This document shows, piece by piece, positions 6,265 through 37,617 of a stretch of DNA of 64,000 nt (the stretch's first letter is position 1; every line of letters starts with the position of its first letter). The notes under the pieces are model-generated. The model was not told where the DNA came from and did not search any database. It worked only from the letters and a program-made list of their open reading frames with translations. The translations under genes and the position numbers were made by a program. Source of the DNA: a virus; IMG/VR virus record IMGVR_UViG_3300043570_004127, positions 96,001 through 160,000 of that record; one strand, 5' to 3'.

Positions 6265-6748
6265 TGAGACTTTTGCTCGGATTGTCGCAGAAGATGTAAA
6301 AAACAACGTAACCGAAAGCCAGCGAGAATATTTGATGCTCCCACAGAATCGGGCACGCTGGAAGTTTGCATTAAAAGTCTTGTCCGAAAATATCAGTTCA
6401 CAAATAAAGGACATCAACGCAGACAAGGAGGCCGACAGTATTCGTTATTCGGCACTTGGTTCGCAGGGGAAGTCGATGCTTGTCGAATCAGGTGCTGCCT
6501 ATGACGCGAAGCTCAATAAGATTAGTCGCTTCATGTTCTACGTTGAAAGCCGTCTTAATTTTGTAGAAAACCTCGTTGAGGATGAGTCTGAGATGTCTCG
6601 AAAAGAGCTCTTAGAAGCAGCAATTCACAAGTATCTTGAGATGCTTGATGAGATGGACTTTGAACGCACCGAACTTGACGATGCACTTGAGCACGCATTG
6701 ATTAACAACTCCCTATCTGCGTTTGACTCAGTTACACTTGAAGAGTGA
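6257..6748 (+). CDS. Hypothetical helical protein
   Basis: Start moved to ATG 6257, which overlaps the upstream gene's end. Coupled to the next gene. Confidence 0.6.
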   Translation: MNDETFARIVAEDVKNNVTESQREYLMLPQNRARWKFALKVLSENISSQIKDINADKEADSIRYSALGSQGKSMLVESGAAYDAKLNKISRFMFYVESRLNFVENLVEDESEMSRKELLEAAIHKYLEMLDEMDFERTELDDALEHALINNSLSAFDSVTLEE

Positions 6749-7047
6749 GATATAGGTCAAAGAAAAAAGAAGAAGAGTACAAACTACGAAGACCTCTCGT
6801 TATTCGCTTGCTCGAAGAGCGACCATGGTGCGAGGCATGTTCAAAATTTGCCGAACACGATGAAGTTGTTACCTATACAAGAAACAGAAGCAGCGACATA
6901 CATGAAATTATTCGTCGTTCACAGGGCGGCTCGATACTCGATGAAGAGAATCTCATGTCGGTATGTAGGCCGTGCCACATGAGAATCGGAAACTATCCGC
7001 AGTTGGCTTTTGACCTAGGTCTGGCTAAGCACGGCTGGGAGCGTTAG
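6745..7047 (+). CDS. HNH-like endonuclease / Zn-finger protein
   Basis: CxxC...DIHE....SQGG....ENL..VCRPCH pattern. Confidence 0.7.
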   Translation: MRYRSKKKEEEYKLRRPLVIRLLEERPWCEACSKFAEHDEVVTYTRNRSSDIHEIIRRSQGGSILDEENLMSVCRPCHMRIGNYPQLAFDLGLAKHGWER

Positions 7048-7078
7048 GTTTTAACTAGCTAAGAGTTTTTGGGTATAA

Positions 7079-7115
7079 AAAAACCACCTCACCCACTAGT
7101 GATGAGGTGGTTTTT
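7079..7115. terminator. Bidirectional intrinsic terminator
   Basis: AAAAACCACCTCA...TGAGGTGGTTTTT inverted repeat between the convergent genes 6745-7047 and 7130-7480. Confidence 0.85.
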
Positions 7116-7129
7116 GTTAAAGGGTTTAT

Positions 7130-7480
7130 TTAGCCTTGGATTACGGTGAATGCAACTGTCATGTTTGAACCAGCAGTGCCGGAACCGACAGCCGATACGT
7201 CAAGGCTGACAAGAGCGCCTTGTGTGAAATCGCAGTTGGCTGCAGTAAGCGTGCCTTCGTCTGAAGTTCCTGCAGCTGCGATTGAGAACGCTGCTGCTAC
7301 ATCAGAACCGACTTTAAGGTCTGCGGTAAGTGCTGAACCTGCTGGTGCTGTGGTTACGGCTACGTAAGCGCCGGTGATTCTGCCAGCAAACGGCATGGCC
7401 ATTGTGACGATGCTGCTGGTTGACAATCCACCAGCAATGTTCATTGTGATGGTTGTTGGTGCGAGTACTGCTGTTGACAT
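7130..7480 (-). CDS. Small beta-rich virion/decoration-like protein (paralog of 62699-63115)
   Basis: ATG 7480 with AGGAG RBS. Shares VxTAPxGSxxxxD and xxLDVxxVGS...GxNxTV with 62699-63115. Confidence 0.6.
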   Translation of the reverse strand: MSTAVLAPTTITMNIAGGLSTSSIVTMAMPFAGRITGAYVAVTTAPAGSALTADLKVGSDVAAAFSIAAAGTSDEGTLTAANCDFTQGALVSLDVSAVGSGTAGSNMTVAFTVIQG

Positions 7481-7592
7481 TTTTTCTCCTATGTATAAAT
7501 GGGGTACGCGAAAAAGTATACACCAAACAATCTTGACCAAAGGAGAATAAAAAAAAACGTTTATTTTACGTGAGTGAAAAATGTTGCGGGTG

Positions 7593-7598
7593 TATTGT
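7593..7598 (+). promoter_or_regulatory. -10 element for sRNA-1
   Basis: TATTGT lies 6 nt before the rRNA-antisense 17-mer, the same spacing seen at leaderless genes in this window. Confidence 0.55.
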
Positions 7599-7604
7599 TG
7601 TAAT

Positions 7605-7667
7605 CCTTAGGACCGTTATAGGCGCGAAAGTCGGGTGGGGAAACTCACTCGGCTTTTGCGTTTTTTT
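7605..7667 (+). ncRNA. Candidate sRNA-1: 5' seed antisense to 23S rRNA helix 69, followed by an 18-bp GNRA-capped terminator hairpin
   Basis: CCTTAGGACCGTTATAG (7605-7621) is the reverse complement of 23S CUAUAACGGUCCUAAGG. Hairpin 7622-7661 has 5 G-U pairs and a GAAA loop, then a U-run. Confidence 0.7.
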
Positions 7668-7715
7668 GTTTTACAAACACCATAAAGCTATTTACTTTCG
7701 TAAGGCATCGCTGAG

Positions 7716-7724
7716 TGTTACTCT
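7716..7724 (+). promoter_or_regulatory. Extended -10 (TGn-TACTCT) for sRNA-2
   Basis: TGTTACTCT about 6 nt upstream of the structured segment starting at about 7730. Confidence 0.55.
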
Positions 7725-7729
7725 GAAAT

Positions 7730-7865
7730 CCTCTAGCCGGTAGCCGTTTCCAAGGGAAGAAAGGCAGGTGGTCAAAGAGTCTAGTGATTTTTCACGGCAA
7801 AACAATTCCTCTATGCTCCGAGGACATTGGAAACCCGCCTGATGCTAGAGGTCAGGCGGGTCTTT
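7730..7865 (+). ncRNA. Candidate sRNA-2 / structured leader with a 16S 3'-end complement and a terminator
   Basis: AGAAAGGCAGGTGGTC (7758-7773) resembles the complement of the 16S 3' tail. Long-range pairings 7730-37/7844-51 and 7746-53/7827-34. Terminal hairpin 7833-7861. Confidence 0.6.
7833..7865 (+). terminator. Intrinsic terminator hairpin
   Basis: ACCCGCCTGAT-gctagag-GTCAGGCGGGT followed by CTTT. Confidence 0.7.
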
Positions 7866-7888
7866 GCTGTACGGGGTAGTATTCGTCT

Positions 7889-8404
7889 GTGAAACTACTT
7901 GGACTAGACCTTTCTCTCACTTCTACTGGGTACTGTTTCGACGGTGAGAGCGGCGTTATCGCCACTGGCCTTTTAGGGACCGAACGTCTCGAAGCAGTAA
8001 AAGATGATATTTCGAATTTATTATTAGCTAATAAAATTGATTGTGTTCTTCTTGAAGGCTACTCATTTGCGTCTCGTAGCGGGCAAGCGTTTTCTATTGG
8101 TGAGCTAGGTGGAGTTATTAGACTTTTGATACACAATCTAGGGATAAATCTCATAGAGATACCCCCAACATGTAGGGCCAAGTTTGCAACAGGAAAAGGG
8201 AACGCCTCCAAGAATGAGGTTATCTCAGCAATATCTGCCCGAACCGGAATCGTGTGGGGGAATCCTGGCGCTGATGATAAATGTGATGCTTGGATTCTTG
8301 AAGAGATGGGTCTTGCTCGTCTCGGCAAACAAAGATATTCTTGGCCAGACGTAAACATGTCTGCTCTGGAGAAGATAGATTGGACTCCTCTCGAAGGGAA
8401 TTAA
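7889..8404 (+). CDS. ruvC: RuvC-like Holliday junction resolvase
   Basis: LGLDLSLTSTG, LLEGY, ELGGVIR, KFATGKGNASK, DxCDA. Confidence 0.85.
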   Translation: MKLLGLDLSLTSTGYCFDGESGVIATGLLGTERLEAVKDDISNLLLANKIDCVLLEGYSFASRSGQAFSIGELGGVIRLLIHNLGINLIEIPPTCRAKFATGKGNASKNEVISAISARTGIVWGNPGADDKCDAWILEEMGLARLGKQRYSWPDVNMSALEKIDWTPLEGN

Positions 8405-36950: not shown

Positions 36951-37617
36951 AGAAGAATTCGCCTAATTTTAGCGCAGTTGGTGGATTGTCTCGATGCCAC
37001 ACGTTTGTGACCATGACTTGCCTGATTCCGCTCTTTGCAGGTGTGGTCCCATGGACAACGTGGCCAGTATCAAAAATGATTACACGGTTACCCTTGTAGG
37101 CGATTCTTTCACGCTCTTCAACTGGAACTAATAACGTGTTGATGTTTTCAGACTCAATAGCCAGTTTTTCTCCATCTTTCAAAATGGCTTTATTGTATAT
37201 TTCAACAAAACCACCATCCTGATTGTCGAGACCATAGAATATCGAGCCAGTCAATGGGCCACTAAAAGTCTTTGACTCCTGGTAAAGAAAGGTGTCTTCA
37301 TCGACATGAACATCAAGATACTGGCCTGGGAGATAGGTTCTTGTCCAGTACTCAATACCGAGGATTTCGCTTGTATCGCATGGAAGGTTGTCTTCCCAAA
37401 TTGCCTGAACGACCCGCTTCCTTAATGTGTTTGCTGGAGTGGACCACCATCCATCCCAAAACATATATGGAGCAAAACAACTTGACTTTTCGTAATGGTA
37501 CGAATTCAGCTCTGTAGCTAATCTTTCGTCAGAGCCCATTGACTCTGGGAAAAATAGTTTGTCAGCTAATACATCTTCATACAAAGAATCATTGAGTGCA
37601 TTGTCTTTTATAATCAT
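36943..37617 (-). CDS. 2OG-Fe(II) dioxygenase
   Basis: GIEYW...HVDED...GNRVIIFD..HG....R. Confidence 0.75.
   Translation of the reverse strand: MIIKDNALNDSLYEDVLADKLFFPESMGSDERLATELNSYHYEKSSCFAPYMFWDGWWSTPANTLRKRVVQAIWEDNLPCDTSEILGIEYWTRTYLPGQYLDVHVDEDTFLYQESKTFSGPLTGSIFYGLDNQDGGFVEIYNKAILKDGEKLAIESENINTLLVPVEERERIAYKGNRVIIFDTGHVVHGTTPAKSGIRQVMVTNVWHRDNPPTALKLGEFFYE

Follow-up and report, generated by a model that had tools for sequence, protein, structure and literature searches.

The window analyzed in this study, which is the whole 64-kb stretch of DNA presented here, is part of a phage record in IMG/VR of 79.5 kb with a completeness estimate of 54%, and the portal gene, large terminase, and tail sheath found in this record identify the phage as a myovirus. 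An intergenic gap of 405 nt (7484-7888), flanked by a gene for a 117-aa protein and by a RuvC-like gene, holds a putative RNA, referred to here as RNA B, together with a companion, RNA A. The genes of the locus and the elements outside RNA B are as follows.

6745-7047, plus strand: HNH gene, converging on the 117-aa gene
7130-7483, minus strand: gene for the 117-aa protein, Ala/Thr/Gly-rich, with a strong Shine-Dalgarno (SD) sequence (AGGAG)
7593-7672, plus strand: RNA A, with a -10-like TATTGT at 7593-7598 and an 18-20-bp terminator hairpin at 7620-7663 that contains five G-U pairs and is followed by a U-run
7877-7882, plus strand: TAGTAT, a -10-like hexamer 6 nt 5' of the GTG of the RuvC-like gene
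7889-8404, plus strand: RuvC-like resolvase gene, GTG start (PHROG 159, E 1.4e-30)

The 117-aa protein had matches in approximately 96 viral contigs, with identities of up to 93%, and no family match in Pfam or PHROG and no match among cultured phages. In some relatives its gene separates the HNH gene from the RuvC-like gene, and in others (types 3 and 4, see below) it is missing. Between the converging HNH (plus) and 117-aa (minus) genes lies a hairpin (7075-7119) with an A-run and a T-run at its sides, which is likely a two-way terminator.

A DNA similarity search against cultured phages returned no match; for the terminase and RuvC proteins, the nearest cultured relatives are actinobacterial phages (Gordonia, Brevibacterium, and Streptomyces), at approximately 40% identity. 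No gene for WhiB, an actinophage marker, was found in the 79 kb, and no tRNA or tmRNA genes were found in the 64-kb window. A TAnnnT hexamer stands exactly 6 nt 5' of the start codon in 7 of 75 genes, compared to about one at other distances; examples of these sites are 7877-7889 in the window, 34241 (minus), 35440 (minus), and 64348, and the RuvC-like gene is among the seven. This signature suggests leaderless mRNAs at operon starts, a type of mRNA that is common among actinobacteria, and it agrees with the remark in the first-pass annotation of this DNA that the phage appears to use such mRNAs often. Based on the actinobacterial phage relatives and the leaderless signature, the host is probably an actinobacterium. 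SD use in the phage is weak, with AGGAG-type sequences preceding some genes, such as that of the 117-aa protein. The RuvC-like gene has no SD; a TAG(T/C)(A/T)T-like motif before it is kept in relatives, and a -10-like hexamer lies 6-7 nt before its start in most classes, which suggests that the RuvC mRNA is leaderless and has its own promoter.

Extent and fold of RNA B

As judged from comparative sequence data, RNA B is a real and conserved non-coding RNA of approximately 140 nt (~7731-7870, plus strand). Its parts, including the complement of the 3' tail of 16S rRNA (referred to here as the box), are listed below.

7716-7724, plus strand: extended -10 TGTTACTCT, with TG at 7716-7717, one base, and the hexamer TACTCT at 7719-7724
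7730-7737, plus strand: 5' strand of the pseudoknot, CCTCTAGC, pairing with the P6 loop at 7844-7851
7758-7764, plus strand: box half 1, AGAAAGG, complementary to the terminal 7 nt of the 16S tail (CCUUUCU); without a pairing partner in the consensus fold
7765, plus strand: linker, a bulged C between the box halves
7766-7773, plus strand: box half 2, AGGTGGTC, complement of GAUCACCU with one G-U
7784-7795, plus strand: P3 hairpin, GTGA TTTT TCAC; 3 of 4 pairs change on both sides, 95.8% of cells paired
7796-7801, plus strand: 5' strand of P5, GGCAAA, pairing with TTTGCT at 7863-7868; nearly invariant
7808-7823, plus strand: P4, a variable hairpin (CCTC...GAGG) from the MFE fold; its length and sequence vary among relatives
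7833-7861, plus strand: P6, a GC-rich, terminator-like hairpin of 10 bp from the terminator scan, ACCCGCCTGA / TCAGGCGGGT
7844-7851, plus strand: P6 loop, GCTAGAGG, the 3' strand of the pseudoknot
7862-7870, plus strand: 3' tail of RNA B, CTTTGCTGT, a weak U-tract; its TTTGCT (7863-7868) pairs in P5

The extended -10 and the GC-rich hairpin that the first-pass annotation had placed in 7716-7865 are both present, the latter recovered by the terminator scan. Alignments of relatives show that the pattern TGnTAnnnT is kept at a constant distance from the 5' motif of RNA B. A consensus sigma-70 promoter scan found no -35/-10 pair at RNA B, and a conserved TTTACT (7691-7696) lies 22 nt upstream of the -10 hexamer, too distant for a canonical -35. 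With promoter and transcript ends predicted in this way, transcription would start near 7731 and the box would lie approximately 28 nt from the 5' end.

In the window, the full box is AGAAAGG-C-AGGUGGUC, a two-part element of 16 nt that is unpaired in the RNAalifold consensus. RNAduplex pairs positions 7758-7773 (AGAAAGGCAGGTGGTC) with the tail GGAUCACCUCCUUUCU at -22.4 kcal/mol, through 7 + 8 = 15 base pairs that leave one C bulged and include one G-U, which reproduces the complement given in the first-pass annotation. This is the best tail-complement site on both strands of the 64 kb, followed by sites at -21.6 (in a coding region) and -17.6 kcal/mol. The second of these three sites, GGATGGTGGTCC at ~37438-37459 on the minus strand, may be a chance match or an internal SD-like site. 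The tail sequence is a real one in the presumed host group: among 201 genomes drawn from the class to which an uncultured Actinomycetes MAG belongs, 97 carry GGCTGGATCACCTCCTTTCT (the 16S rRNA of E. coli ends in CCTCCTTA). The variant tail GGACCACC, with GACCACC, occurred in 0 of the 201 sampled genomes of the same class, which speaks against the invariant G of GGUGGUC matching a GACCACC tail of the host. Given this absence, the G in GGUGGUC is read as forming a wobble pair; the type-4 relatives described below have an A at this position.

The proposed fold is supported by covariation. Changes on both sides were observed in 5 of the 8 pseudoknot pairs, with the type-1 variants CATCTAGC/GCTAGATG and TCCAGC/GCTGGA, and in 7 of the 10 pairs of P6 (96% of cells paired). 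P5 is found in both the MFE and centroid folds; TTTGCT is invariant across 36 sequences, and compensatory variants of the helix are GGCAG:CUGCU (L069), AGCAAA:UUUGCU (L160), and GCAAGAA:UUCUUGC (L289 class). For the whole structure in the 36-sequence alignment, 88.5% of cells are paired, compared to 35-48% when the partners are slid, and 101 cells are changed on both sides, compared to 37 in shuffles; the fold z-score of 7731-7870 is -2.8. The 5' pseudoknot and P5 thus tie up both ends of RNA B, so that the U-tract of the apparent terminator sits in a helix. The original description of a tandem RNA is therefore right in that the RNA is real, and incomplete in that it missed the pseudoknot, P5 with the U-tract, the fixed spot upstream of the RuvC-like gene, and a GTG at 7768. 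Searches of Rfam at permissive thresholds (riboswitches, T-box, and known sRNAs) gave no plus-strand match in RNA B near the gathering score; the best score was that of sX5, with 13.2 bits against a gathering score of 50, and involved the hairpin only. The GGUGGU of the box resembles a T-box sequence, and a T-box identity was considered and dropped in view of the lack of Stem I, of a specifier region, and of a T-box model match.

The GTG at 7768 lies within the box and opens a frame of 24 codons, so the nearest GTG is not at 7784, as had been stated. Frames starting from the 7768 GTG are 4 to 43 codons long in relatives and are shifted by one-base indels, and in 16 of 36 relatives GTA replaces the 7784 GTG, with compensation on the opposite side of the P3 hairpin. 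No conserved ORF was found in RNA B among the relatives compared. A micro-ORF for which the box would serve as ribosome binding site (RBS) was rejected on these grounds, since neither frame lengths nor frames are conserved. Two further points of the first pass therefore hold: no start codon stands at a functional SD distance, as the 7768 GTG overlaps the box and the 7784 GTG and its frames are not conserved, and RNA B is a non-coding RNA rather than the RBS of a translated small ORF, with the 7784 GTG varying as part of a hairpin.

Relatives of RNA B and the partner of the box

Searches of viral contigs, for which a DNA pattern and the RuvC-like and 117-aa proteins served as queries, yielded several hundred related loci. 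More than 70 distinct viral contigs were found to carry RNA B with its box, in every case directly 5' of the RuvC-like gene and in the orientation of that gene, and the segment flagged in the first pass is thus conserved. A first regex applied to 89 distinct RuvC-upstream regions identified both RNAs in 56, A only in 14, B only in four, and neither in 15; some of the regions with A only proved to hold a divergent B, and the count of 60 regions with RNA B from this regex was later extended by the L117-class and type-4 variants. The order of the two RNAs differs among classes, with A upstream of B in type 1 and between B and the RuvC-like gene in types 2 and 3; module A is absent in type-4 relatives, which also have no U-tract after the hairpin. 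In type-1b relatives, P6 is followed by a good U-tract (UUUUUGCUUUU). When 185,579 species genomes of bacteria and archaea were scanned with a pattern, 10 matches were obtained, none of them an RNA B homolog, and the RNA B family appears to be phage-restricted. Its carriers are a family of large uncultured lake phages whose hosts are probably actinobacteria.

The box region is 90-96% identical between contigs in which the RuvC protein is only 60-70% identical. In types 1-3 the box consists of AGAAAGG, a linker of 1-3 nt, and GGUGGUC(C). Across all relatives the linker is 0-3 nt long (C, CA, CG, AC, AU, U, CAA, CGA, or UCA) and is absent in the L117 and type-4 classes. The motif GGUG(G/A)UC is invariant in all homologs; at the wobble position, opposite U4 of the tail, most classes have G and type 4 has A. 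For each of the 43 distinct homologs of types 1-3 a tail duplex is predicted, with energies between -19.5 and -26 kcal/mol that become -6 to -19 kcal/mol once the cost of opening the RNA is included. Two divergent classes occur at the same distance from the RuvC-like gene, with a P3-like hairpin following the box. One has the box (U/G)GAGGGGGUGGUCC, which still pairs with the tail, and recognizable P5 and P6; the type-4 box, AGGGAGGGGGUGAUCC, pairs contiguously over 16 positions (with G-U), at -27 to -29 kcal/mol. Where RNA B is missing, RuvC-upstream regions reach only -8 to -15 kcal/mol, and up to -18 kcal/mol where the site lies in upstream coding sequence. These differing boxes keep their complementarity to the tail, which upholds the view that the 16S-tail complement is under the strongest selection in RNA B.

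Substitutions were tabulated in 33 syntenic boxes, which were selected for their position and the anchor GGUG(A/G)UC, irrespective of duplex energy. The partners of tail U 9, 12, 13, 14, and 16 vary between A and G, and the partners of tail C are always G; outside the search anchor, A/G variation occurs at 5 of 5 U-opposed and 0 of 3 C-opposed positions (Fisher ~0.02). Variation between A and G opposite U, combined with a fixed G opposite C, is to be expected of a partner whose U and C positions coincide with those of the 16S tail; the sequence of the box's partner is in this way defined base by base, and it equals that of the 16S tail. Purine-rich stretches are common protein-binding sites and a GTG lies inside the box, so the SD resemblance could in principle be incidental, the box being kept for a protein partner or a tertiary structure, or as the RBS of a translated micro-ORF. 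This would leave unexplained a pattern that is a prediction of base pairing, as well as the unconserved ORF length and frame and the independent match of the neighboring RNA A to 23S rRNA, and it is highly improbable.

The substitution pattern defines the sequence of the partner only, not its identity, and the layout of RNA B, in which a promoter is followed by a conserved unpaired segment and a hairpin resembling a terminator, is the one usual for sRNAs. RNA B might therefore be a base-pairing sRNA whose target is another RNA with a CCUCC-type, tail-like sequence, such as a host or phage mRNA or pre-rRNA. However, the 79-kb phage record contains no outstanding complementary site: no better partner of the box was found in it, the best site having -23.3 kcal/mol and lying on a non-coding strand. 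In addition, the partner deduced from type-4 relatives equals the 16S tail over all 16 nt, and no other RNA with that sequence comes near 16S rRNA in abundance. A target of this other kind is improbable. The partner for which the box is selected is likely the 3' tail of 16S rRNA, and docking of RNA B on this tail is well supported by the comparative data. A scaffold-only covariance model detected no box-less scaffold among the searched loci; the reach of the model is limited, as it missed the two most divergent classes.

Many type-1 relatives (e.g. L194:1942-2101, L253:1641-1798, and L238:2069-2224) contain a segment (G/A)CCACC(U/A)G(CC) between P3 and P6. The CCACC(U/A)G segment can pair with the box over 8-9 bp, thus resembles the 16S tail, and is absent from the window's own RNA B; it is possibly a built-in mask of the box.

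Possible roles of RNA B and RNA A

With the 16S tail as the probable partner, the question becomes what docking could do for the phage. The reading that we prefer, tentatively and at somewhat less than an even chance, is that RNA B is a phage-specific structured non-coding RNA that mimics a very long SD without a start codon and masks the anti-SD in trans. RNA B would be transcribed from its own extended -10, in this window as a stand-alone stable RNA, and a scaffold of P3, P5, P6, and the pseudoknot would tie both ends and leave the 16-nt box unpaired. The box would then pair with the 3' tail of the host 16S rRNA and dock RNA B on 30S subunits. With the anti-SD occupied, SD-led initiation would be expected to fall relative to that on the SD-poor and leaderless mRNAs of the phage, and the bound 30S may in turn shelter RNA B.

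Masking of the anti-SD is favored by the RNA's own extended -10, by a discrete form with sealed ends that would be suited to accumulate, and by the separate hexamer of the RuvC-like gene. It is also favored by the stand-alone nature of RNA A, which consists of a seed and a terminator, and by the weak SD use and leaderless signature of the phage. Several observations weaken it. A pure trap for 30S subunits would have no need of the 1-3-nt linker, by which the GGAGG core is divided in most classes. In many relatives the box can pair with the internal CCACC(U/A)G, at an opening cost of up to 16.5 kcal/mol. A decoy must reach a copy number like that of ribosomes, and the strongly expressed genes of the phage themselves use SDs (AGGAG in the case of the 117-aa gene) and would also be hurt by masking of the anti-SD. 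Additionally, the target of RNA A, helix 69 of 23S rRNA, is needed for 70S formation, which leaderless mRNAs require. Finally, a role in cis would fit two features, the constant same-strand location 5' of the RuvC-like gene and the missing U-tract of type 4.

Such a role in cis could be that of a 5' stabilizer of the STAB-SD type, in which the box would recruit a 30S subunit that blocks 5'-to-3' decay by RNase J of RNA B and of read-through transcripts of the RuvC operon. RNA B always preceded the RuvC-like gene in the same orientation (60 of 89 regions and the later variants), the U-tract is weak in the window (CUUUGCUGU), and the absence of a U-tract after the type-4 hairpin implies that RNA B there lies within a longer transcript. 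The short distance of only ~28 nt between the box and the predicted 5' end is also as expected, and STAB-SD elements, like stabilizers acting against RNase J1, are of a known kind and are mentioned in papers such as PMC4113751 and PMC3997798. However, a -10-like hexamer of its own precedes the RuvC-like gene in most classes, so transcription through RNA B is not required; type-1b relatives have a good U-tract after P6, and in types 2 and 3 module A separates B from RuvC. In addition, RNA A, with its seed and strong terminator, is a stand-alone RNA with nothing downstream to stabilize, and the 3' end of RNA B sealed by P5 suggests a discrete RNA. A stabilizing role in cis is unlikely on balance, if far from negligible.

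A further possible role would be that of a switch or attenuator, in which the box either pairs with the 5' arm of P6, allowing read-through into RuvC, or is held by a ligand or a 30S subunit, allowing termination. In the window, AGGCAGGU (7762-7769) can pair with ACCCGCCU (7833-7840) at -12.9 kcal/mol, with 9 of 200 shuffles equal or better. The pairing beats shuffles in only 2 of 24 distinct homologs, however, and this antiterminator, strong in the window and unconserved, was rejected as a candidate. The U-tract is moreover paired in P5, the RuvC-like gene appears to have its own promoter, and no riboswitch family was matched; a switch of this kind is very improbable.

For masking in trans, the companion RNA offers a possible second arm. 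The core of RNA A, CCTTAGGACCGTTATAG (7605-7621), is a perfect 17-nt antisense to positions 1914-1930 of E. coli 23S rRNA, which cover the loop and 3' strand of helix 69. Nowhere in the 79-kb record is there a longer match to rRNA, and the second longest has 14 nt. The core GACCGTTATAG is kept in all classes, and three of four substitution types keep the pairing via wobble; the remaining one (type 3) breaks the pair opposite A1916. It is very unlikely that adjacent RNAs would each match a functional site of a different rRNA by chance, and this arrangement suggests that A and B act together on ribosomes. As an observation apart, in type-4 relatives (L338:1201 upstream, at ~-144; L303 and L321) the bases just 5' of the box are antisense to 23S 1938-1948, 8 nt from the target of RNA A, with CGACAAGGAAU in L338 and CGACAAGG in the others; this 11-nt match could be due to chance. 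A and B may even be a two-RNA system that grips both subunits, at the 16S anti-SD tail and at 23S helix 69, to reprogram, park, or dismantle host ribosomes, an idea that we regard as rather doubtful. If true, it would be an RNA-based ribosome takeover without described precedent, which could, for example, shift initiation to SD-poor and leaderless mRNAs.

Comparison with known systems

Literature searches turned up no description of a phage RNA pairing with rRNA and no publication on the A/B RNA pair. Phages act on host ribosomes with proteins, and they tamper with this part of the 30S subunit, phage-encoded bS21 being a case in point. A decoy function of RNA B is plausible, and it is probably with an RNA that this phage grips the small ribosomal subunit. 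Should RNA B mask the anti-SD, it would offer a natural means of switching translation between leaderless and SD-led mRNAs, and ribosome specialization of this kind is a long-debated question. Should it instead stabilize RNA in a ribosome-dependent way, the STAB-SD concept would come to include phages of actinobacteria as well as an RNA that is structured and stands alone. Under masking and stabilization alike, RNA B is an abundant, uncatalogued RNA family of lake viromes.

The RybB/OmrA-type sRNAs of bacteria and phages consist of a seed plus a terminator. RNA B resembles them in that a predicted promoter precedes it, a conserved pairing segment is exposed, and a hairpin lies toward its 3' end, and RNA A fits their layout closely; in RNA B the extended -10 is conserved and the hairpin present, with a U-tract that is weak in the window and paired in P5. 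In contrast to these sRNAs, which target mRNA, the probable target of RNA B is rRNA, and no mRNA target stands out in the phage genome. To our knowledge, actinobacteria lack Hfq.

A protein-based counterpart is known in Bacteroidetes, where ribosomal proteins are reported to sequester the anti-SD (PMC7797042). There, as would be the case with RNA B, the anti-SD tail becomes unavailable and the set of mRNAs able to initiate is altered. Sequestration is performed there by ribosomal proteins of the host, whereas RNA B would do so as an RNA in trans, and the likeness is a functional analogy only.

Elements closer to the box itself are STAB-SD of the Bacillus thuringiensis cry3A mRNA and the polypurine 5' stabilizer of phage SP82, which are reportedly SD-like, located near the 5' end of the RNA, and thought to hold a 30S subunit. 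They share with RNA B the complement to the 16S 3' end and the absence of a start codon at a working distance; the box of RNA B would likewise lie near the 5' end as predicted, and SP82 is likewise a phage. However, they are short, unstructured pieces of leader with a complement of ~9 nt, compared to the ~140 nt of structured RNA with a pseudoknot, sealed ends, and a complement of 14-16 nt in RNA B. In addition, STAB-SD resides in an mRNA leader. RNA B in the window shows a predicted promoter of its own, a hairpin resembling a terminator, and a further -10 before the RuvC-like gene, while in type-4 relatives the hairpin is followed by no U-tract.

The small mRNAs rreB and rreR of Alphaproteobacteria are 165 nt long, carry a 16-17-nt complement of the 16S 3' end, and co-sediment with 30S subunits (Hahn et al., PMC5711450). 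The extended SD of rreB binds 30S tightly and suppresses rather than drives translation, and rreB is a chromosomal bacterial gene that encodes a conserved 14-aa peptide with a GTG start (PMC5711450). RNA B is similar in size and also has a long complement of the 16S 3' end; this complement comprises 15 pairs split by a bulge in the window and 16 contiguous pairs (with G-U) in type 4, compared to the 16-17 nt of rreB. While rreB has a conserved small ORF and is located on a bacterial chromosome, RNA B has no conserved ORF and was found in viral contigs only. RNA B is thus new to RNA catalogues and, unlike STAB-SD and rreB, is an ORF-less, elaborately structured, phage-encoded RNA that is paired with an anti-23S RNA.
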